Source: Candidatus Omnitrophota bacterium (lineage in GTDB: Bacteria > Omnitrophota > Gorgyraeia > JAHJTE01). Taken from it: 64,000 nucleotides of DNA. The translations under genes were made by a program, and so were the position numbers. The stretch spans positions 7,053-71,052 of the forward strand of contig JAHJTE010000002.1 in assembly GCA_018830005.1 (NCBI GenBank), read 5' to 3'. Under the pieces are notes generated by a model. The model saw only the letters and a list, made by a program, of their open reading frames with translations, was not told the origin of the DNA and searched no databases. Positions 14,335 through 54,304 of the stretch are shown piece by piece; the first letter of the stretch is position 1; each line of letters begins with the position of its first letter.

Positions 14335-14612
14335 TTGAAAATTAAATCCTACAGGTCCTTTCTCTAGGAAAGAGAAAGGGATAACAGGGAATCCTAAAAA
14401 GGGAACGGTCCCGCCGCTGTATAAGGTAACGAAATCCCAGAAAGCCACTTCTTAAAAGATCTTTTAGAGGGAAGGCAGGGAGAGTAGGTTATGAAGCCTT
14501 GAGTCAGAAAACCTGCCTGTAAAAATAAGCCTCGAGGAAGGGTGAAGTTAAACAGGGCGCAACCCCGAAGCTGACGATTAGAAGAATCGTAGATTTCGGG
14601 GTTTTTTATTTT
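14335..14612 (+). ncRNA. Cobalamin (AdoCbl) riboswitch with terminator expression platform
   Basis: Conserved core GGGAAcGGTCCCGCCGCTGTA, upstream GGGAATCC, and B12-box-like GAGTCAGAAAACCTGCC. Followed by hairpin ccccgaag...cttcgggg and T8 at 14564-14612. Confidence 0.65.
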
Positions 14613-14617
14613 TAAAA

Positions 14618-15223
14618 ATGCCTAAGAAGCTAATCTTAATTCGGCACGGTCAAACAGACTGGAATTATCAAAAAAGATATACTGGCTTTACGGATATAGG
14701 CCTAAATAAAAAAGGCAAGGCCCAGGCAAGAAGGCTTTCTAAGAAGTTAAGCAAAGTAGAAATTCATAACGTCTACGCAAGCAATATGAAAAGAACAGTT
14801 CAGTTTGCCAAGATAATCTTTAAAGATAAACCAGTAAAAGAATTTTCAGGGCTTCGCGAGATGAATTTTGGCATACTTGAAGGCTTGACATATCAGGAGA
14901 TTATGAAAAAGCACTCTCAAGCTTATACGAAATGGTTAGCCAACCCATCAAAACACACTATTCCAGAAGGTGAAAATTTAAATAATTTCGCAAAAAGAGT
15001 AAGAAAAACATTAAAGACGCTATTATCAGACAATAAGAATAAAACAATCGCAATATTTACTCACGCCGGCCCCATAAAAGTAATTTTATGCGATATTTTA
15101 AAAATAAGTTTAAGAGAGACTTGGCGTATAGAGCCAAAATCAGGCAGCATTAATATTATTGAATTTACTAGGGGCAAGGCTAGAATCCACTCTACATCCA
15201 ACACGGCATATTTAAATGGGTAA
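14618..15223 (+). CDS. cobC: Alpha-ribazole phosphatase (histidine phosphatase family)
   Basis: LILIRHGQTDWN phosphoglycerate-mutase-like RHG motif, in a cob operon context. Confidence 0.7.
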   Translation: MPKKLILIRHGQTDWNYQKRYTGFTDIGLNKKGKAQARRLSKKLSKVEIHNVYASNMKRTVQFAKIIFKDKPVKEFSGLREMNFGILEGLTYQEIMKKHSQAYTKWLANPSKHTIPEGENLNNFAKRVRKTLKTLLSDNKNKTIAIFTHAGPIKVILCDILKISLRETWRIEPKSGSINIIEFTRGKARIHSTSNTAYLNG

Positions 15224-40078: not shown

Positions 40079-41161
40079 ATGAAAAAGATTAAGGTTAATC
40101 TCAAGGACAGAAGCTACGATATCCTCGTTGGAAATAAGATTATTCCTGGATTGCCTGCCTGTATTAGGAGGATTATCAAGCAGACTGATGCAATCATAAT
40201 CACAAATTCAACTATTGCCAAGCGTTACGCAGGTGCGCTAAAAAAAGCATTAAAAGGCAGTGGATTTTCTCATATACTTCTTACTGTACCTGACAGCGAA
40301 AAGGCAAAATCCATATTCTACCTGAATAAACTTTTAAATAAAATTGCAAGATACGCAAAGGACAAACTGCCTTTTATCATCGCTCTAGGGGGAGGAGTGG
40401 TAGGTGATGTTGCGGGATTCCTGGCATCAATTTATAAAAGAGGCATCCCCTATATACAAATTCCTACAACCCTGCTTGCGCAAATTGATTCTAGTATTGG
40501 CGGGAAGACTGCCCTAGATTTAACCAGTGGTAAGAATCTCGTTGGTTCATTCTATCAGCCAAAATTGGTATTATGCGACATTGGTCTCCTAAAGAGTCTG
40601 CCGCAGCGGGAAATTAGCTCAGGTCTGGCAGAACTAATCAAATATGCCTTGATAAAGGATGTTGGACTTTTTAATTATCTTGAAAAAAACTATAAAAATT
40701 TACTAAAGTTAAAGCCCGCAAATTTACTACCGGCTGTTTCTTGTTGCGTTAAAATTAAGGCCCAAGTTGTATCAAAAGATGAAAGGGAAAAAAGAGGACT
40801 GCGCACTATTCTTAATTTTGGTCATACTGTAGGGCATGCCATAGAAAGTGCCAGTAATTACAGATACAATCACGGTGAATCAGTAGCCTTAGGAATGCTG
40901 GCTGAGGCAAGGATTGCGCTCTCTCTGAAACTGATAAATAATGATATTTATGACAGGATCTTAAAGTTGATAAGGAATTGCCGCCTACCTACTAAAATAA
41001 GAAAGATAAAGTGCGAAAAAATAATGCAGGTTATTTATTTTGATAAGAAATTCGTTGGTAAGCTTAGTCGTTTTGTCCTGCCAACTAAAATTGGTAAGGT
41101 GATAATTAAAGAGAATATTAAGCAGGCAGTTATAAGAGAGGCCATAAAGGACCTGAGTTAA
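40079..41161 (+). CDS. aroB: 3-dehydroquinate synthase
   Basis: GGGVVGDVAGF...IPTTLLAQIDSSIGGKTA. Confidence 0.85.
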   Translation: MKKIKVNLKDRSYDILVGNKIIPGLPACIRRIIKQTDAIIITNSTIAKRYAGALKKALKGSGFSHILLTVPDSEKAKSIFYLNKLLNKIARYAKDKLPFIIALGGGVVGDVAGFLASIYKRGIPYIQIPTTLLAQIDSSIGGKTALDLTSGKNLVGSFYQPKLVLCDIGLLKSLPQREISSGLAELIKYALIKDVGLFNYLEKNYKNLLKLKPANLLPAVSCCVKIKAQVVSKDEREKRGLRTILNFGHTVGHAIESASNYRYNHGESVALGMLAEARIALSLKLINNDIYDRILKLIRNCRLPTKIRKIKCEKIMQVIYFDKKFVGKLSRFVLPTKIGKVIIKENIKQAVIREAIKDLS

Positions 41162-42636: not shown

Positions 42637-42724
42637 AATATTTTCTTAAATTATAGCAAGACTCTAAATCAATGTAAAGGGCAAATATTTGACATCGCTA
42701 ATTTATTGTGCTAGACTTACTAGC

Positions 42725-43075
42725 ATGGAACAGGCAAATATTGAAAGAAGAAAGCATAAAAGACTCAATAAACGCTTCCCCGTACATTTCCGCATAAAAA
42801 CTACCAATAAATACGGCGATACCTTAAGCTGTGACGTTAGCGGAGGCGGCATAAGGGTAATGATTCAGAATTTCATAGCCCCCAAAACTGATTTTATGCT
42901 TGAATTTAGCATTAATGATTTCTTTCAGATTATTTCCGCTGTCGGAAAAGTCGTCTGGACAAAGAAAGTGCCCCATTCTGATCGCTATCAGTTAGGTATA
43001 GAATTCAAGGAAATCCCTTCAAAAGTCAAAGAAGTCATAACTCAATTTATTGAAGATTGCTTTAGCAAGCTCTAA
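42725..43075 (+). CDS. PilZ domain protein
   Basis: RRKHKRLNKRFPV (RxxxR) and DVSGGGIRV (DxSxxG). The ORF-track ATG at 42689 lies inside the -35 TTGACA, so the start is moved to MEQANIE. Confidence 0.6.
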   Translation: MEQANIERRKHKRLNKRFPVHFRIKTTNKYGDTLSCDVSGGGIRVMIQNFIAPKTDFMLEFSINDFFQIISAVGKVVWTKKVPHSDRYQLGIEFKEIPSKVKEVITQFIEDCFSKL

Positions 43076-43529: not shown

Positions 43530-43910
43530 ATGAACTACAAAGGATCAGAAAGAAGAAGAGCAAGTCGAGTCGAAAAGAATGTACCCATAAAGATAAAAGA
43601 GGTCAATTTTGACTCTGTCAGTGAAACAAGAAACCTAAGCTCTTCTGGAATTTACTGCAGGCTGGATAAATATATCGCACCAATGGAAAAGGTTGTTATG
43701 ATTCTTTTGGTACCGCGATTAAAAGAATCTTCCCCTGGAAAAGACCGCTGCAAAAAGGTCGAATGCGAAGGCACAATAGTAAGAACCGAGCTGGTCAATG
43801 ATCCTATTGAAGGCGACTACTATAATGTTGCTATCTTCTTTAGCGAGATAAAAAAAGCAGACAAGTCCTACATTGAAAAATATGTAAAGAGACATTTGGA
43901 AGAAAAGTGA
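43530..43910 (+). CDS. PilZ domain protein
   Basis: RRRASRV and NLSSSGIYC motifs. Confidence 0.55.
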   Translation: MNYKGSERRRASRVEKNVPIKIKEVNFDSVSETRNLSSSGIYCRLDKYIAPMEKVVMILLVPRLKESSPGKDRCKKVECEGTIVRTELVNDPIEGDYYNVAIFFSEIKKADKSYIEKYVKRHLEEK

Positions 43911-44628: not shown

Positions 44629-45156
44629 ATGAGAGTCGCAGGATTTACTGAATCTGTAAAATTAATCGTTGGCCTCATCAGTAAGGATGAGGCGTTTCTT
44701 TTATCGGCAAAAAAAGAATTAGCAAAAGAATTCGGAAAAATAGACTTTGAGAGTCGTATAATGGCCTTTAACTACACAGATTACTATACCCGGGAGATGG
44801 GAGATAACCTTAAACGCGTTTTCTTGGGTTTTGAAAAATTAATTGATCCAACCAAATTAACCAGGATAAAAATCTTGACCAATAAGTTAGAAGAACGTTT
44901 CTCTCATCAAGGCAGGAGAAAAGTAAATATTGACCCCGGCTACATTGATTTAGCAAGATTGATCCTAGCCTCAACAAAGGACTTTAGCCATCGAATCTGC
45001 TTGGGCAAAGGGATTTATGCAGAGGTTACGCTACTGTTTAAAAATAAGACATTTACCCCGCTTGAGTGGACGTATCCGGATTACAGAACAAAAGATTATA
45101 TAGAAGTTTTTAAAGACTTAAGAGCAATATACAGCAGACAAATTTCCTCACAATGA
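44629..45156 (+). CDS. DUF4416-like protein
   Basis: Family recalled from the pattern KLIVGLIS...INIDPGYIDLARLILAS. No catalytic motif. Confidence 0.35.
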   Translation: MRVAGFTESVKLIVGLISKDEAFLLSAKKELAKEFGKIDFESRIMAFNYTDYYTREMGDNLKRVFLGFEKLIDPTKLTRIKILTNKLEERFSHQGRRKVNIDPGYIDLARLILASTKDFSHRICLGKGIYAEVTLLFKNKTFTPLEWTYPDYRTKDYIEVFKDLRAIYSRQISSQ

Positions 45157-45896
45157 AATTAAAAACTTTTTTAATATTGGTTTTGCTATTCGTCTTTTTA
45201 TCTGGTTGCGCTAATACATATAATCCAGCAACCGGCAAAAACGAATTTATCATTATTGGCACGAGCTCAGAAGTAAGCCTTGGAAAACAAGTCGCTCGCC
45301 AGATTGCCTGGGAAAAACAAATAATAAAAACCGGGTTTCAGCAATTAAGAGTACAAAGAATCGGAGAACGCCTAGCTAAACACTCAGATCGCAAGGATTT
45401 GGAATATAATTTTTTTCTAGTTAAAGATGAAGAACTTAATGCCTTTGCCGTACCCGGCGGCTTTATCTACATAAACACTGGTTTAGCAGAGAGGGCAACT
45501 GAGGACGAACTTGCCTGTGTAATCGCCCATGAAATTGTCCACGTTGCTGCGCGCCACAGCGTAAAAAACCTTCAGGCCTCTTTAGGTTACCAACTTCTTA
45601 TTTCAATAGCCTTAGGTAATAAAAATCAGATAAGGACACGACAGATCTCTGATATGGTATTTAATTTAAGCAGACTTGGTTATTCACGTAGTGATGAAAC
45701 GTTAGCAGATAAATTGGGCGTAAAATACGCACATTTAGCTGGATATAATCCGCAAGGAATGATTAGTTTCTTTGAGAAATTAAAACAAGAGGCCCTAAAA
45801 CATGGAGGCGCTTTACGCATCGAGATATTCAGTTCACATCCTGACATAGACAAACGAATACTGACTACTAAAGAAGAGATTAAAAAGCTGCAATAA
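45153..45896 (+). CDS. M48 family metallopeptidase lipoprotein
   Basis: Lipobox LSGC and HEIVHVAARH HExxH. 4-nt overlap with the upstream gene. Confidence 0.7.
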   Translation: MKLKTFLILVLLFVFLSGCANTYNPATGKNEFIIIGTSSEVSLGKQVARQIAWEKQIIKTGFQQLRVQRIGERLAKHSDRKDLEYNFFLVKDEELNAFAVPGGFIYINTGLAERATEDELACVIAHEIVHVAARHSVKNLQASLGYQLLISIALGNKNQIRTRQISDMVFNLSRLGYSRSDETLADKLGVKYAHLAGYNPQGMISFFEKLKQEALKHGGALRIEIFSSHPDIDKRILTTKEEIKKLQ

Positions 45897-45898
45897 CA

Positions 45899-46435
45899 AT
45901 GAAAAATAAAAAGAAGGTGTGTCTCCTGCTTTTTCTTTTATTGCTTATTGACTCCTCAGTATCAGCTGAAACAATCAAGCTTAAATCAGGAAAAACTGTT
46001 GAAGGAAAAATTGTTACGATGACAGATAAATATATAAAGGTAGATATCGGAATTAATGTAAATATTATGTATTTTTTAGATGAAATAGAAAAGGTAGATA
46101 AAGGCGAGACGGAGGACAGTCAAGTTGAGGACTACACTGTTGAGAATGAGCATTCTATTAAAAGAAACAAATTCTATCCTATTCCTTACCAACCCAACGT
46201 GAATAAATTACAACATCGCCTAAAGCCTAATTTCAAAACAACAACAAGAACCATCCAATTCCAAAAAAGTGCCCTGAAATTACAAATGCCACTTCAATCT
46301 AAAGAAGAATTTCTGATAGATGCGCCTCAGCATGATCATTTTACAGGAGAATATCAGCTACAAAGAGATACCTGGAGAGACGCCTGGCGACAGAGAAGAA
46401 ATAGTTGGCAAGAGAACCATTTTTATAGAAAATAA
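45899..46435 (+). CDS. Hypothetical secreted/lipoprotein
   Basis: Signal peptide, no motif. Confidence 0.35.
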
Positions 46436-46436
46436 G

Positions 46437-47477
46437 ATGGTAAAGACAAAGATAATCTGTACAATAGGCCCATCCAGCTCTAATGAAACTGTCTTAAGGA
46501 ATATGGTGTTAGCAGGTATGGATGTTATAAGGCTGAATTTTTCGCATGGCACTCATAGAGAACATCAATCCCGAATTGATTTAATTAGAGGGTTAAATAA
46601 AAGGTATAGGCGACACATCAAGATATTACAGGACCTGGAAGGATATCGCATAAGAATTGGCAGGCTAAAAGGTAGGAAGGCAATTGAATTAAAAAGAAGA
46701 CAAGTAGTTCTTTTGAGCAATAAGAAAAGATTAAAAAACAAAAGTATTATAGCATTCGACTACCAAGGCTCATTAAACGACATAGAGGCAGGAAGTTATA
46801 TATATATAGATGATGGAAATATCTCGCTTAAGGTAAAGGCCAGATATAAGAATTATATAAAAACAGAGGTAGTTATTCCGGGAACCCTAAAAGAAAATAA
46901 AGGCATTAATATCCCAGATGCTAAGTTAAAATTCAAAGGCCTAACAGAAAAGGATAAGATAGATCTTGAATTCGCAATCAGAAACAAGGTAGATTATATC
47001 GCCCAGTCATTTGTAAGAAGTAAAAAGGATATTAATAATATTAGACGCTTTATTAAAAAAGGCGGCGCGAATCCCAAGGTTATTGCTAAGATCGAAAACC
47101 GTCAAGGAATCAATAATATAGATAAGATTCTAGGTGTATCTGATGGGATTATGATTGCACGTGGAGATATGGGTGTATCTTTACCCATATATCAGATACC
47201 ATTTTATCAGAAGATGATAATTAAAAAATGTAATAAAAGAAGGCGGTTCGTAATTACAGCTACGCAAATGCTTGAGAGCATGACTGAAAATCTAAAACCT
47301 ACGCGCGCAGAAGTAACTGACGTGGCTAATGCAATACTTGATGGTTCGGATTTCCTGATGCTTTCAGGAGAGACAGCTGTTGGCAAATATCCTGCTAAAA
47401 CAGTAGAGATGATGAATCAAATAATTAAATTCACGGAAAGGTCAAGTAAGACCACAACTAAGGAGGTAGTAATATGA
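46437..47477 (+). CDS. Pyruvate kinase-like protein lacking the C-terminal regulatory domain
   Basis: [37 protein letters not shown] are all present. Ends about 346 aa, right after the barrel domain, and is 4-nt coupled to the next gene. Confidence 0.7.
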
Positions 47478-48250
47478 ATTGGGGTATGAAGAATAGATTA
47501 TCAAGAATAATCAGCCCGAAGACAGGCCGCTGTGTCATGCTGGCAGTAGACCATGGTTATTTTCAAGGTCCCACTACTGGCTTAAAAGACCTAGCTAAAA
47601 CCGTCAGTCCCCTCCTAGACTTTGCAGATGCATTAATGATAACCAGGGGCGCATTAAGAAACTGGATTGCACCAGAGATGGATAAACCTATCATTCTAAG
47701 GGTCTCAGGCGGCCAAAGCATATTAAAAGAATTATCAAACGAAATAATCACAACTTCTATTTCTGATTGCATAAGAATAAATGCATCTAGTATTACTTGC
47801 TCTGTTTACATCGGATCGGAATTTGAAAAACAGACGATTGGAAATTTATCTAAAATAGTAAATGAAGGGGAAAATTACGGAATTCCCGTGCTGGCAGTAA
47901 CAGCAGTCGGTAAGGAAATAGCGCGCGATGCGCGTTATTTAAGTCTAGCATCAAGGATGTGCGTAGAATTGGGTGCACATATGATAAAAACCTATTACTG
48001 CGAAAACTTTAAAAAAGTTGTGCAGGCCTGTGGAAACGTTCCGGTTGTTATTGCAGGTGGAAAGAAAATAGAAGAAAAAAAGGCCTTAGAAATGGCCTAT
48101 CATGCGATTAAAGACGGCGCAGCTGGTGTAGATATGGGAAGAAATATATTCCAATCTGATAATCCAGTCGGAATGATAAAAGCCGTAAGGGCTATTGTCC
48201 ATAACAAGGCCTCAGTCAATGAAGCCTTCAGGATTTATAAACATACCTAG
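47474..48250 (+). CDS. DhnA-type class I aldolase family protein (FbaB / ADH-synthase / LsrF-like)
   Basis: [13 protein letters not shown] and Schiff-base lysine motif HMIKTYY. 258 aa. Confidence 0.6.
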
Positions 48251-48254
48251 ATTA

Positions 48255-49235
48255 ATGAAAGTCGCAGTCTATTATAATAACAGAAAGATCAAGATAGAAG
48301 AACTGCCACGACCCCAGATAAAGGAGGGAGAAATCCTGCTTAAGGTCAAGGCCTCTGGTATCTGCGGCACAGATGTCCTGGAGTGGTATAGGATTAAAAA
48401 GGCCCCCCACATTCTAGGTCATGAAATAAGCGGTGAGATTGCTGAATCAAAATCAGCTAAATTCAAAGTTGGACAGAGAGTATTTGTAAGCCACCACGTT
48501 CCTTGTAATACTTGCAAATACTGCAGAGATGACAATCAAACAGCATGCGAAACCCTGCACAAAGGCAATTATGATCCGGGCGGATATAGTGAATTTGTCA
48601 GGGTGCCGAAAATAAACGTAGAATACGGCACCTATCTATTGCCGGATAATGTCTCTTATGAAGCGGCAACCATGATTGAGCCTCTGGCCTGTGCGATAAG
48701 GGGATTAAACTTAATTAATATAAGAGAGGGGCATTCTGTTTTAATTCTTGGGAGTGGTGTCTCTGGATTGATGAATATTGCGCTGGCAAAATTAAAAGGT
48801 GCAAAGGTTATCGCAACTGATATAAACGAATACAGATTAGAAAAGGCCAAGGAATTTGGCGCAGATAGGATAATAAATGCAAATCAAGACTTCAAGGTAA
48901 CGGCTGAAAGGATAATAATTTGTACTGGCGCTAAAGCTGCCATCTTAGAGGCATTCAAATCCATAGATAGAAAAGGTATAATACTTTTCTTTGCTATCGG
49001 CGATGAAAGAATCGAAGTCCCGGCTGTTGATTTTTGGAGGAATGAAATAACAATTACCTCAAGTTATGGTGCAGCCCCTAATGACCTAAAGCAGGCCTTA
49101 GAGCTGATCAAGGAAGAAAGATTAGATATTGAAGGGCTAATAACACATAAGCTACCCCTAGAACAAATCCAAGAGGGATTCGATATTGTCGCATCTGCAA
49201 ATAAATCTCTAAAGGTCATATTACTGCCTTTTTAA
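48255..49235 (+). CDS. Zinc-dependent medium-chain alcohol dehydrogenase (threonine/sorbitol dehydrogenase-like)
   Basis: GICGTDV...GHEISGE zinc ligands, structural-Zn cysteines CNTCKYC, Rossmann GSGVSG. Confidence 0.75.
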   Translation: MKVAVYYNNRKIKIEELPRPQIKEGEILLKVKASGICGTDVLEWYRIKKAPHILGHEISGEIAESKSAKFKVGQRVFVSHHVPCNTCKYCRDDNQTACETLHKGNYDPGGYSEFVRVPKINVEYGTYLLPDNVSYEAATMIEPLACAIRGLNLINIREGHSVLILGSGVSGLMNIALAKLKGAKVIATDINEYRLEKAKEFGADRIINANQDFKVTAERIIICTGAKAAILEAFKSIDRKGIILFFAIGDERIEVPAVDFWRNEITITSSYGAAPNDLKQALELIKEERLDIEGLITHKLPLEQIQEGFDIVASANKSLKVILLPF

Positions 49236-49254
49236 GTTAATAAGAGGGGAATAA

Positions 49255-49731
49255 ATGGATAACGGAGAAACTTATTTAACGCGGGACGGTTACGAGAAAC
49301 TAAAGAAAAAACTCGACCATTTAAAGAATAAACGCAGAAGAGAGCTTTCTAAGGCAATAGCCGAAGCCAGGGCGCATGGGGACATAAGCGAAAATGCTGA
49401 ATATGACGCTGCTAAAGATGCGCAGGCCTTAAACGAGGGAAGGATCGCAACTTTAGAAAGTAAATTGGCTCGCACTAGAATAATCGATGATGAGGACATA
49501 CCTAAAGACCAGATATTTATCGGGGCAAAAGTAGACCTCCTAGACCTAGAAACAGAAGAAGAAATTCACTATATACTAGTATCAGAATTAGAGGCAGATT
49601 ATGAGCAGAACAAGATCTCCATTACCTCTCCTGTAGGCAAGGCACTTTTGGGCCACAAACAAGGCGAAACAGTAGAAATCCAAGCTCCCGCAGGCCTCTT
49701 ACAATACAAAATATTGAAGATATCAAGATAA
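49255..49731 (+). CDS. greA: Transcription elongation factor GreA
   Basis: YLTRDGYEKLKKKLDHLKN...GDISENAEYDAAKD. Confidence 0.85.
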   Translation: MDNGETYLTRDGYEKLKKKLDHLKNKRRRELSKAIAEARAHGDISENAEYDAAKDAQALNEGRIATLESKLARTRIIDDEDIPKDQIFIGAKVDLLDLETEEEIHYILVSELEADYEQNKISITSPVGKALLGHKQGETVEIQAPAGLLQYKILKISR

Positions 49732-50156: not shown

Positions 50157-50185
50157 TTGACAATCTCCTGAGCCGGAGTATAATT
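50157..50185 (+). promoter_or_regulatory. Consensus sigma70 promoter TTGACA-N16-TATAAT
   Basis: cttgacaatctcctgagccggagtataatt, seen directly. Confidence 0.55.
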
Positions 50186-50413: not shown

Positions 50414-50665
50414 ATGGTTGAATTATTCAAAAATGGCCAAGTAGAACTCAGCAAGGATATCGATGAATCCGGAAATGTAAATATAAGCGTCAGATTCAAT
50501 GCAGGTATAGATAAGGCTGAAATAGATGTGTTTTATGAGGTTATAAGCTGTGCCTTGCATCGAAGATATGGAGAGTGGCTAGATCTATATAATATCGAAA
50601 ACTACCAAAATAACTATCGCAACAACTCCCGTCTAGAAAATCTTATTGACAACGAAAAGTATTAA
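50414..50665 (+). CDS. Hypothetical acidic 83-aa protein
   Basis: ORF immediately follows the Cys-rich ORF. No motif. Confidence 0.3.
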   Translation: MVELFKNGQVELSKDIDESGNVNISVRFNAGIDKAEIDVFYEVISCALHRRYGEWLDLYNIENYQNNYRNNSRLENLIDNEKY

Positions 50666-50778
50666 TATATAATTAAATTCAGTAGTAAATAAGGAGGTAG
50701 AATTCTGCTGCTGTAAGGCGAGAAGAGCCTTAGGTGTTGCGGTTGATTTCTTTCCGCAAAAAGGAGGTGTAGTAAGTA

Positions 50779-51882: not shown

Positions 51883-52251
51883 ATGCCTAAGAAATATCAA
51901 GGCATTGAAGCCAGGCGCTATCCTAGAATATCCTGGAATTTCATAGTAAAATTCAGGCTCAAAACTTCACAAGACTCCAAGTGGTTTATTTCCAATATCA
52001 CAAATATAAGCCAAGGCGGCTGCTTTTTTTATAGTCCTGTCCCTTATGAAATAGGCCAAACCTTGGAGGTTGAAATACAGTTTCCCAGGCTAACGCAACC
52101 CATGCACTTTCTAGGAGAAGTAAGGCGAAAGGTAGATGAGGAAAACGCACTAAATTCAAGATACGGTATAGCGGTTATGTTTTTAGAGATGGAGGAAGAA
52201 AAGAGGAAGGAATTTCTCGAATCGATAGACTTTTTTCTGAAGAAACGCTAG
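51883..52251 (+). CDS. PilZ domain protein
   Basis: RRYPRI and NISQGGCFF motifs. Confidence 0.6.
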   Translation: MPKKYQGIEARRYPRISWNFIVKFRLKTSQDSKWFISNITNISQGGCFFYSPVPYEIGQTLEVEIQFPRLTQPMHFLGEVRRKVDEENALNSRYGIAVMFLEMEEEKRKEFLESIDFFLKKR

Positions 52252-53645: not shown

Positions 53646-53759
53646 AACCCCCATTAACATAACCTCTTATTTTACAGTCAATTACGTCGAATAATAGAAA
53701 AAAACTAATTTTTGTGGTATACTTATAGTGTTATATTGTAGCTAATACGATAAAGGCAA

Positions 53760-53915
53760 ACCATTTGAAAGAGTGGGGCGGGCCGAAAGCCCGGTCCTGA
53801 AAAGGACCGCAAAACTTATAGAGCCTAAATCCTAAAAACTTAGGATATGGCAGTCAGTTGCCGAACATAGTGGATAAAAAATGCCTATTCTTTCAAAGGA
53901 ATAGGCATTTTTTTT
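53760..53915 (+). ncRNA. Candidate small RNA: three hairpins plus intrinsic terminator
   Basis: gggccgaaagccc, ggtcctgaaaaggacc, atcctaaaaacttaggat hairpins, then gcctattctttcaaaggaataggc + T8. Confidence 0.25.
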
Positions 53916-53929
53916 GGGGGGTGGCAAAG

Positions 53930-54304
53930 ATGAACGAGAAGATTCTGATAGTAGACGATGAGCCTGACGTATGCGAAGCAATCGGTCTATATTTTAGCAA
54001 AAGAAACTATAAAATTATTACTGCCAATAACGGTCAAGAGGCACTCTCTAAAGCCAAGAATGAGAAGCCGGCATTAATATTGCTAGATATAGTTATGCCT
54101 AAAATGGGTGGAATCGAGTGTCTGCGCAAAATAAGAAGGTTTAATAAGAGGGTACCTATCATTATAGTTACTTGCGTAGATAAATTAAAAACAGCCTTGA
54201 AGGCCATGAAATTAGGCGCTACTGATTATATAACAAAACCTCTTGGTTTTGATGCCTTAGAGACAACTATTTCTACATATCTCTTTTTGAAGAGCGTTAA
54301 TTGA
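53930..54304 (+). CDS. Single-domain CheY-like response regulator receiver
   Basis: KILIVDDEPDV...LILLDIVMPKMGGIE...IIIVT...K. Start moved to MNEKIL because the ORF-track start overlaps the terminator hairpin. Confidence 0.8.
   Translation: MNEKILIVDDEPDVCEAIGLYFSKRNYKIITANNGQEALSKAKNEKPALILLDIVMPKMGGIECLRKIRRFNKRVPIIIVTCVDKLKTALKAMKLGATDYITKPLGFDALETTISTYLFLKSVN

Follow-up and report, generated by a model that had tools for sequence, protein, structure and literature searches.

The best explanation of our data is that three enzyme genes lying one behind the other in a Candidatus Omnitrophota genome make up two functional units, which are adjacent by chance in the window (the whole 64,000-nucleotide stretch of DNA that was analysed): a short pyruvate kinase (PK) on the one side and, on the other, an LsrF-type aldolase-fold enzyme together with a zinc dehydrogenase (ADH). 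The latter two genes form a conserved two-gene cassette that is widespread in uncultured bacteria and archaea. As to what this pair does, we tentatively propose that the ADH would oxidise 5-deoxyribulose-1-phosphate to the substrate of LsrF, which would then undergo CoA-dependent cleavage to DHAP and acetyl-CoA, with the PK acting separately in glycolysis; the salvage mechanism is suggested by gene context in 8 of 88 loci. The features concerned are the following:

46437-47477, forward strand: PK without a C-domain, 346 aa, comprising the A barrel and B domain only (PF00224 and TIGR01064 profiles).
47460-47477, forward strand: PK/aldolase junction, read from the sequence, with the Shine-Dalgarno motif AAGGAGG at 47460-47466 and the aldolase ATG (47474-47476) overlapping the PK stop TGA (47475-47477).
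47474-48250, forward strand: LsrF-type class I aldolase-fold enzyme, 258 aa, with Schiff-base lysine K172, annotated as 3-hydroxy-5-phosphonooxypentane-2,4-dione thiolase.
48255-49235, forward strand: Zn-dependent medium-chain dehydrogenase (MDR) of the polyol/threonine-dehydrogenase type, 326 aa, predicted to be NAD+-specific (ADH_N and ADH_zinc_N domains).

The overlap between the PK stop and the aldolase start, and the zinc MDR dehydrogenase that follows, are as an earlier note on this DNA had described them. That note also took the three genes for a single carbon-carbon lyase and redox module outside the textbook pathways, acting on PEP or pyruvate plus an aldehyde. The overlapping stop and start codons and the tight, co-directional packing would fit such a pathway, as would the presence of PK near the pair in three related assemblies. 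However, the same packing runs through seven consecutive genes between 44629 and 49731, encoding a DUF4416 protein, an M48 peptidase, a lipoprotein-like protein, PK, aldolase, ADH and GreA, with gaps of -4 to +19 nt, and the junctions with the unrelated M48 peptidase and GreA are equally tight. Since tight gaps extend across seven unrelated genes, the PK/aldolase overlap is not special, and co-transcription of PK with the pair would reflect a compact genome that packs unrelated genes together. Scans for promoters and terminators returned counts near the shuffled expectation and were uninformative.

Synteny also argues against a three-gene unit. The aldolase-ADH pair was missing within 10 kb in 79 of the 80 genome loci found via the short PK, and PK was present in none of the 80 metagenome loci retrieved via the aldolase. 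PK adjoins the pair only in close Omnitrophota relatives, and even there the gene order varies, with one arrangement in the window and L172 and another in L006 and L171. A conserved PK-aldolase-ADH trio, which the earlier note had named as a point to check, was thereby ruled out, and a single pathway formed by all three enzymes, already largely refuted by synteny, is in our view extremely improbable. What survives of the proposed module is the aldolase and its Zn-MDR partner, conserved in what is predicted to be non-textbook chemistry; PK drops out as a member. Any tie between PK and the pair would be a loose one, in which DHAP flows via lower glycolysis to PEP.

The PK itself has PF00224 as its sole Pfam match (395 bits against a cut-off of 30, profile positions 3-328 of 328) and scores 461.7 bits on TIGR01064 (cut-off 306.4), where positions 2-340 of 476 are matched. 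Its alignment to the full-length E. coli enzyme PykF, at 46% identity, covers residues 1-338 of 470, and its C-terminus lies 10 residues past the barrel. In this pairwise alignment the catalytic and Mg/PEP-site residues R32, N34, S36, D66, R73, K218, E220, D244, T276, S310 and E312 are all identical to what we take to be their PykF counterparts (R32, N34, S36, D66, R73, K220, E222, D246, T278, S312 and E314). The earlier note was therefore right that the enzyme keeps its catalytic motifs, stops after the barrel and lacks a C-domain. It had also named a C-domain ORF downstream, or a sequencing frameshift, as what would speak against this. When the PykF C-domain was used as a query, neither the window nor the 80 related loci gave a match (all E > 0.4); the best of the weak hits, downstream of PK in L078 and L081, belong to genes for a P-type ATPase and a trehalose synthase. 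Furthermore, the PK ORF stops 0-23 residues past the barrel in 79 of 80 genome loci, a conservation of the ORF end which shows that the short PK is not a frameshift; with no C-domain similarity found, a frameshifted or split gene was ruled out.

C-domain-less PKs are a common, large and widespread family that is not peculiar to this operon: the closest 120 homologues are all 335-366 aa long, and JGI entry P0001, at 346 aa, is identical to the window PK. A search of the literature by phrase found no account of a characterised, naturally C-domain-less PK, and this large natural family offers a test case for the purpose of the C-domain. As a side observation, one gene caller places the PK start 22 codons too late.

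At the K+-site (positions 113/114/117/120 in rabbit-PK numbering, where the K+-dependent signature is T113/K114/E117/T120), the window PK carries L67/E68/R71/I74 in place of the T/K/E/T of classical PKs. PMC8835810 gives the K+-independent pattern at these rabbit-PK positions as L/Q/K/(L,I,V). The L/E/R/I of the window PK is close to that pattern, and the enzyme is predicted to be of the K+-independent type. Because it has no C-domain, neither the usual effector site nor a C-C tetramer interface is to be expected, and the K+-site signature points the same way; we infer that the enzyme may be unregulated, or regulated differently. With activity predicted, it is probably the normal glycolytic pyruvate kinase of its lineage. 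In other genomes the short PK has glycolytic surroundings, with glycogen phosphorylase next to it in 10 loci and class II FBP aldolase in 5.

The aldolase and the ADH show the opposite pattern of association to that of the trio. Of 80 metagenomic loci, 46 have an ADH orthologue no more than 3 kb from the aldolase, and in 41 of the 46 it follows immediately downstream in the same orientation; a more distant MDR adjoins the aldolase in 8 further loci, and 13 loci had no room for a neighbour. Bacteria (Omnitrophota among them) and DPANN archaea both carry the pair, with the aldolase conserved at about 80% identity and the ADH at about 70%, and the aldolase of a Woesearchaeota locus (L163) is 82% identical to that of the window. 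When ORFs within 7 kb were clustered across 82 loci, no conserved neighbour other than the ADH emerged, the remainder being antisense artefacts and lineage-specific housekeeping synteny.

The aldolase belongs to family PF01791 and aligns K172, within the motif MIKTYY, with LsrF K203, in agreement with the earlier note, which had placed it in the FbaB / ADH-synthase / LsrF superfamily on the strength of a Schiff-base lysine. Within that superfamily, it passes the LsrF equivalog model NF006081 (402.1 bits, cut-off 297), matches the LsrF structures 3GKF/4P2V at E = 5e-92 and is 53.7% identical to E. coli LsrF. It falls below the cut-offs of NF040816 for archaeal FBA (137.5 vs 430), TIGR01949 for ADH synthase (193.7 vs 299.45) and NF005556 (210 vs 241). 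Across 88 orthologues the equivalents of LsrF D57, H58, K203, Y205, G226, G227, D251, M252, G253 and R254 are invariant, the active-site residues being those named by Diaz et al. 2009 (PMC2728841). These comprise the Schiff-base Lys203, Asp57 and Asp251, the last of which sets LsrF apart from FBA and ADH synthase, and a phosphate site made up of His58/Gly226/Gly227/Gly253/Arg254 (PMC2728841). The enzyme is thus firmly LsrF-type, with thiolase activity predicted. A role as the glycolytic FBA (FbaB) of the organism was ruled out, in line with the earlier note, as the protein lies under the FBA cut-offs and relatives have a class II FBA beside PK. In addition, the ligand of LsrF-type enzymes is a phosphoketone of the DHAP type rather than pyruvate (PMC2728841); with PK also outside the conserved unit, the suggestion of PEP or pyruvate plus aldehyde chemistry finds no support.

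With the ATG as its start, the ADH is translated into a product identical (100%) to P0241. Its best NCBIfam match is Tdh, under the cut-off (NF003808, 170.1 vs 380; TIGR00692, 159.1 vs 458), and in the PDB it comes closest to ketose reductase and sorbitol dehydrogenase. Invariant in 41 ADH orthologues are C37/H56/E142, C84/C87/C90/C98, G166xG168xxG171 and D189, which represent, in turn, the catalytic Zn ligands, a 4-Cys structural site, the GxGxxG motif and the aspartate for NAD+. Judged by these motifs, the Glu142 zinc ligand marks the polyol/threonine-dehydrogenase type and Asp189 the NAD+ type.

Both the equivalog name in NCBIfam and the 'AI-2 aldolase' label in source annotations would suggest genuine degradation or quenching of autoinducer-2 (phospho-DPD), with the ADH in place of LsrG. 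The surroundings of the gene make this very improbable. No lsrK, lsrR, lsrACDB or lsrG is present in the Pfam-annotated neighbourhood of the window aldolase, and E. coli LsrG and LsrK had no tblastn match in the window; among the aldolase loci, LsrG had no recognisable match (tblastn, E <= 1e-3), and weak LsrK-like FGGY kinases were found in L119 and L131 only. The step from P-DPD to P-HPD, moreover, is a redox-neutral isomerisation, which a dehydrogenase alone cannot perform, and minimal-genome DPANN archaea seem unlikely importers of AI-2. E. coli LsrF itself groups with L130, L138, L147, L148 and L139, a sister clade of the window-type aldolases. Four of these five have, 35-66 nt downstream and in place of the ADH, a gene of the ABM fold (PF03992, the fold of LsrG) whose product is 21% identical to LsrG (E = 4e-5).

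A different source for the substrate is suggested by the genes for Mtn proteins that flank the aldolase in 8 of 88 loci (L084, L086, L123, L128, L153, L161, L163 and L169), where the neighbours MtnA, MTAP, Apt and MtnK pass NCBIfam cut-offs. Seven of the eight are DPANN-like archaeal contigs and hence not independent. None of 79 PK-only loci had Mtn genes (Fisher p = 0.007), bacterial PK loci being an imperfect control, and Mtn genes were absent from the window and from the 10 kb past either end. L119, with a rhamnulokinase-like kinase and a class II aldolase, is another terminal-deoxy ketose-1-phosphate setting. Other Omnitrophota contexts, in which the pair is flanked by aroE and aroC (L165, also L166) or by EF-G and an MFS transporter (L167/L168), are uninformative or point away from deoxy-sugar salvage.

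In the salvage route that we tentatively favour, 5'-deoxyadenosine, and possibly methylthioadenosine, would be converted to 5-deoxy-D-ribulose-1-phosphate via MtnP (or MtnN and MtnK) and MtnA. The NAD+-dependent ADH would then act, in the manner of threonine or polyol dehydrogenases, on the penultimate carbinol at C4 (CH3-CHOH-) and oxidise it, giving CH3-CO-CHOH-CO-CH2OP, that is, 3-hydroxy-2,4-pentanedione-5-phosphate, the established LsrF substrate. Marques et al. are said to have defined the LsrF thiolase reaction and CoA binding in 2014. The LsrF-type enzyme of the pair would form its Schiff base at the DHAP carbonyl and pass the acetyl group to CoA, so that the route would yield DHAP, acetyl-CoA and NADH. 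The ADH would thereby act as a feeder, the role that the LsrG isomerase has in the enteric lsr operon. Against this route, several of the Mtn-context loci (L084, L128 and L169) encode a small class II aldolase-family (Aldolase_II) protein, confined to some archaeal loci, which might be the aldolase of a DHAP shunt; the LsrF-type enzyme would then have no defined role.

The same Mtn gene context also fits a class I version of the DHAP shunt, in which the LsrF-type enzyme is a plain retro-aldolase that cleaves 5-deoxyribulose-1-phosphate or methylthioribulose-1-phosphate to DHAP and acetaldehyde or 2-(methylthio)acetaldehyde, and the Zn-ADH turns the aldehyde into the alcohol, ethanol or 2-(methylthio)ethanol. 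Retro-aldol cleavage is in principle within reach of a Schiff-base scaffold, the last step of the known DHAP shunt is reduction of the aldehyde by an alcohol dehydrogenase (PMC6302742), and ethanol-type ADHs such as 1RJW score nearly as well as polyol dehydrogenases against the window ADH. We nevertheless regard this as unlikely. The aldolase passes the LsrF equivalog cut-off and keeps all LsrF-specific residues, including Asp251, and the ADH has the Glu ligand of polyol/threonine dehydrogenases and an NAD+-type Asp. Nor would one expect bacteria and archaea alike to have kept a generic aldehyde reductase next to the aldolase, and the alternative partner of the sister clade, an LsrG-fold isomerase, is of the kind that feeds in substrate and does not remove product. 

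A further route to the same diketone would be oxidation of 1-deoxy-D-xylulose-5-phosphate (DXP) at C4 by the ADH, followed by cleavage to DHAP and acetyl-CoA by the LsrF-type enzyme; with DXP synthase, this would form a bypass from pyruvate to acetyl-CoA that could also explain the PK neighbour, as PK supplies pyruvate. Chemically, it would give the identical LsrF substrate. L161 encodes a RuBisCO-like protein together with MtnA/MtnK, and in Rhodospirillum a RuBisCO-like protein and MtnA/MtnK-type genes lead from methylthioadenosine to DXP. However, the pair is common in DPANN archaea, and to our knowledge archaea generally lack the DXP pathway. No DXP synthase gene was seen among the recurring neighbour families, and dehydrogenases of the polyol/threonine type would normally oxidise a carbinol beside a small terminal group rather than beside CH2OP. 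We consider this route improbable.

The aroE and aroC genes flanking the pair in L165/L166, an aroB 6 kb upstream in the window (40079-41161) and the secondary match of the aldolase to ADH-synthase models might instead indicate an entry step of aromatic amino-acid synthesis akin to archaeal ADH synthase (AroA'). Against this, the ADH-synthase score is under its cut-off (194 vs 299) and the LsrF model is passed; aro genes occur in no aldolase loci besides L165/L166, and the window AroB is canonical, not DHQ synthase II. As far as we know, DPANN archaea with the pair generally lack the shikimate pathway. As aroE/aroC in L165/L166 and the window aroB do not amount to a recurrent association, the aromatic link was dropped, with hardly any probability left to it.

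Taken more broadly, the salvage reading suggests, possibly though doubtfully, that the pair represents an undescribed 'oxidative DHAP shunt' in which 5'-deoxyadenosine, the universal waste product of radical-SAM enzymes, would be turned via 5-deoxyribulose-1-phosphate into DHAP, acetyl-CoA and NADH. Such a shunt would have a wide distribution, taking in Omnitrophota, further uncultured anaerobes and DPANN archaea, and the enteric LsrF/LsrG for AI-2 would be a specialised offshoot of an older salvage chemistry. Among the matches listed in our literature search, none linked LsrF to 5-deoxyribose, 5-deoxyribulose, methylthioribulose or the DHAP shunt. In metagenomic data, the label 'AI-2 aldolase / P-HPD thiolase' is attached to thousands of proteins and is taken as a sign of quorum sensing in organisms without an lsr system, as in one paper on ammonia-oxidising archaea (PMC11442133). 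If the pair does serve in the salvage of S-adenosylmethionine by-products, such 'AI-2 aldolase' annotations would be misleading, minimal-genome symbionts (DPANN archaea, Omnitrophota) would have an energy-yielding disposal of a toxic metabolite (acetyl-CoA, NADH), and the odd thiolase chemistry of LsrF would gain an evolutionary origin.

Set beside known systems, the window PK has the same barrel and lid domains and catalytic residues as PykF/PykA, from which it differs in lacking the C-domain and in its L/E/R/I K+-site. Short PKs are already catalogued under NF005234 (a 352-position profile); the window PK is likewise short, yet at 321 bits against a cut-off of 564 it is a non-member.

The aldolase shares the class I aldolase fold of LsrF in the LsrF/LsrG system of E. 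coli and Salmonella and keeps all published active-site residues, while lacking the N-terminal 31 residues of E. coli LsrF. As in the lsr operon, the LsrF-type enzyme is paired with an adjoining gene that plausibly makes the diketone substrate; in the window, however, the pair stands without lsrK, lsrR, lsrACDB and lsrG, and the partner is an NAD+-type Zn dehydrogenase instead of an ABM-fold isomerase. The hosts differ as well, the pair being found in uncultured anaerobe lineages and DPANN archaea, and so would the starting material, S-adenosylmethionine by-products in place of AI-2.

The DHAP shunt, or 5-deoxyribose salvage, proceeds through MtnP or MtnK, MtnA/DrdI and the class II aldolase Ald2/DrdA (PMC6079011, PMC10986504). 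It has in common with the pair the upstream genes MtnP/MtnK, MtnA and Apt, as seen in 8 related loci, and the proposed three-carbon product, DHAP. Cleavage by the pair, in contrast, would fall to a class I LsrF-type enzyme and a dehydrogenase rather than to a metal-dependent class II aldolase, and the two-carbon product would be acetyl-CoA (with NADH), not acetaldehyde.

Finally, Tdh and Kbl (2-amino-3-ketobutyrate CoA ligase) convert threonine to glycine and acetyl-CoA. The proposed route would share the logic of this system, in which an MDR Zn dehydrogenase oxidises CH3-CHOH- to CH3-CO- and CoA-dependent cleavage then gives acetyl-CoA; it would differ in that the window ADH lies below the Tdh cut-off, the cleaving enzyme has a Schiff-base aldolase fold in place of PLP, and the substrate would be a phosphosugar.

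The short pyruvate kinase (PK) gene lies in a run of forward-strand open reading frames, from 44629 to 49731, which encode a DUF4416 protein, an M48 peptidase, a lipoprotein-like protein of 178 aa, PK, an aldolase-fold protein, a zinc dehydrogenase (ADH) and GreA, in this order and with intergenic gaps of -4 to +19 nt. The genes of interest are:

46437-47477, + strand, short PK
47474-48250, + strand, aldolase-fold gene
48255-49235, + strand, zinc dehydrogenase (ADH)

The coupling described in the earlier note is real: in the sequence, the ATG of the aldolase gene, preceded by AAGGAGG, overlaps the TGA stop of PK, and ADH follows. Such an overlap is typical for this compact stretch, and alone is no marker of a functional unit. 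In one public annotation, PK begins only at an internal ATG (46503; 9030 in L001), giving 324 aa instead of 346 aa and dropping a conserved N-terminal strand (12 residues). Past greA, a gene-poor 1.6-kb stretch with only two small ORFs (83 and 90 aa) carries two sigma-70 promoters that match the consensus at all 12 of 12 positions (TTGACA and TATAAT with a 16-nt spacer; 50157-50184 and 50646-50673, +). Elsewhere in the window, a cobalamin riboswitch (14336-14534, +; 92.9 bits) lies upstream of a gene string beginning at 14618, and a c-di-GMP-I riboswitch (53745-53865, +; 55.7 bits, gathering score 35) stands directly before an ORF for a CheY-like receiver-domain protein (53858-54304), with several PilZ-domain proteins nearby (42689-43075, 43530-43910 and 51883-52251).

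PK matches the PK barrel family only, covering positions 2-340 of 476 in the TIGR01064 profile, and aligns with residues 1-338 of 470 of E. coli PykF at 46% identity with all catalytic residues checked retained, bearing out the earlier description of a catalytically intact enzyme without a C-domain. The truncation is no artefact, since the best 120 database matches all measure 335-366 aa, the ORF ends 0-23 residues past the barrel at 79 of the 80 loci found through PK in species-representative genomes, sequence searches detected no similarity to the PykF C-domain in the window or in these 80 loci, and 17 of the best 150 50%-identity cluster representatives are shorter than 375 aa (the remainder being full length). 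The conserved ORF end and the lack of C-domain similarity nearby likewise rule out a frameshifted or split full-length PK. An NCBIfam model for short PKs already exists (NF005234, 352 positions), of which the window PK is not a member; it is an ordinary representative of a short architecture that is catalogued but uncharacterised, and is predicted to be non-allosteric. Its monovalent-cation site reads L67/E68/R71/I74, against T/K/E/T in K+-dependent enzymes, and resembles the L/Q/K/(L,I,V) signature given for K+-independent PKs (PMC8835810). Short PKs recurrently neighbour alpha-glucan phosphorylase (10 of the 80 loci) and class II FBP aldolase (5 loci). We conclude that this is the glycolytic PK of its lineage.

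The interpretation given in the earlier note is supported in part; its proposal that PK, aldolase and ADH form a single three-enzyme carbon-carbon lyase and redox module did not hold. Aldolase and ADH lie within 10 kb of PK in just one of the 80 PK-anchored loci (L006), and PK is absent from all 80 metagenome loci found through the aldolase. Adjacency recurs in close relatives only, in two differing orders: M48-x-PK-aldolase (the window and L172) and aldolase-ADH-78 aa-87 aa-PK (L006 and L171). In the latter, the ORFs separating ADH from PK (L006 1942-2444; L171 5499-6001) are small and conserved, with no Pfam match.

The conserved unit is instead the aldolase with ADH, without PK. In 46 of 80 loci the aldolase has an ADH orthologue (42-80% identity) no more than 3 kb away, and 41 of these 46 have it immediately downstream in the same orientation (median gap ~77 nt); a distant MDR adjoins the aldolase in 8 further loci, and 13 are too short to judge. 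Between Omnitrophota and Woesearchaeota/Nanoarchaeota, the aldolases share ~80% and the ADHs ~70% identity, well above cross-domain expectation, which suggests that the cassette was recently transferred between domains (L163/L164, L169, L084 and L153, DPANN-type archaeal contigs).

The aldolase, previously placed in the FbaB/ADH-synthase/LsrF superfamily, can be assigned to the LsrF type: it exceeds the curated NCBIfam LsrF-thiolase equivalog cut-off (402 vs 297 bits), falls below those of the archaeal FBA and ADH-synthase models, and matches LsrF crystal structures at E = 5e-92. The published LsrF active-site residues (D57, H58, K203, Y205, G226, G227, D251, M252, G253 and R254; Diaz et al. 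2009, PMC2728841) have equivalents unchanged across 88 orthologues and E. coli LsrF. No lsr genes lie beside the aldolase in the window neighbourhood or in related loci, and true AI-2 processing by the pair is less likely, as is an aromatic-pathway role. ADH, judged by its sequence, is an MDR of the polyol/threonine-dehydrogenase type, with Tdh (under cut-off), ketose reductase and sorbitol dehydrogenase as best matches. Its catalytic zinc site (Cys37/His56/Glu142), four-cysteine structural site and Asp189 are constant in 41 orthologues, and Asp189 predicts NAD+ use. DXP is a less likely substrate.

Five loci (L130, L138, L147, L148 and L139) group with E. coli LsrF, and in four of them the place of ADH, 35-66 nt past the aldolase, is taken by an ABM-fold gene that has the LsrG fold and distant similarity to LsrG:

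L130 8466-8777, ABM-fold (LsrG-like) gene
L148 6094-6405, ABM-fold (LsrG-like) gene
L147 10801-11112, ABM-fold (LsrG-like) gene
L138 1098-1409, ABM-fold (LsrG-like) gene

No further lsr genes were detectable at these four loci. The LsrF-type enzyme is thus accompanied by either an LsrG-like isomerase or a dehydrogenase, suggesting that each supplies it with a diketone substrate.

Genes for salvage of S-adenosylmethionine by-products (Mtn genes) surround the pair in eight loci, including Apt, MTAP and MtnA in L153, L163/L164 (a Woesearchaeota assembly) and L169, and an ABC transporter, MtnA, MtnK and a RuBisCO-like protein in the bacterial L161. The association (8/88 aldolase loci vs 0/79 PK-only loci, p = 0.007) is overstated by the phylogenetic non-independence of the loci; most aldolase loci have no informative context, and the window, with 10 kb past either end, contains no Mtn genes. 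L119 encodes a rhamnulokinase-like kinase together with a class II aldolase. Some archaeal Mtn/LsrF/ADH clusters also encode a class II aldolase/MtnB-like protein of ~195 aa:

L084 8322-8906
L128 3022-3612, - strand
L169 12688-13275, - strand

This protein, far under every family cut-off, could be a dehydratase, aldolase or epimerase, and could itself perform the cleavage, which bears on the pathway model.

Most likely, the LsrF-type/dehydrogenase cassette, which is of more interest than the short PK, represents a putative new variant of 5-deoxypentose (DHAP-shunt-like) salvage. Starting from 5-deoxyribulose-1-phosphate (CH3-CHOH-CHOH-CO-CH2OP), oxidation of the C4 carbinol would give CH3-CO-CHOH-CO-CH2OP, constitutionally identical to the known LsrF substrate 3-hydroxy-2,4-pentanedione-5-phosphate, from which LsrF chemistry would yield DHAP and acetyl-CoA. 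Under this scheme, the close pairing of the two genes, the presence of a polyol/threonine-like dehydrogenase of the NAD+ type, the exchange of ADH for an LsrG-like partner and the Mtn neighbours would all find an explanation. Alternatively, the pair may form a simpler DHAP shunt of class I, in which the LsrF-type enzyme performs a retro-aldol cleavage and the aldehyde is then reduced. None of the papers listed by the literature searches linked LsrF to 5-deoxyribose, 5-deoxyribulose, methylthioribulose or the DHAP shunt. Whereas cleavage in known deoxypentose salvage and DHAP-shunt pathways falls to a class II aldolase (PMC6079011, PMC6302742), the enzyme proposed here is a class I, LsrF-type protein, which keeps the complete published LsrF active site but, unlike E. 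coli LsrF, has no lsr neighbours. The oxidation and cleavage proposed for ADH and the LsrF-type enzyme would mirror the logic of Tdh/Kbl.
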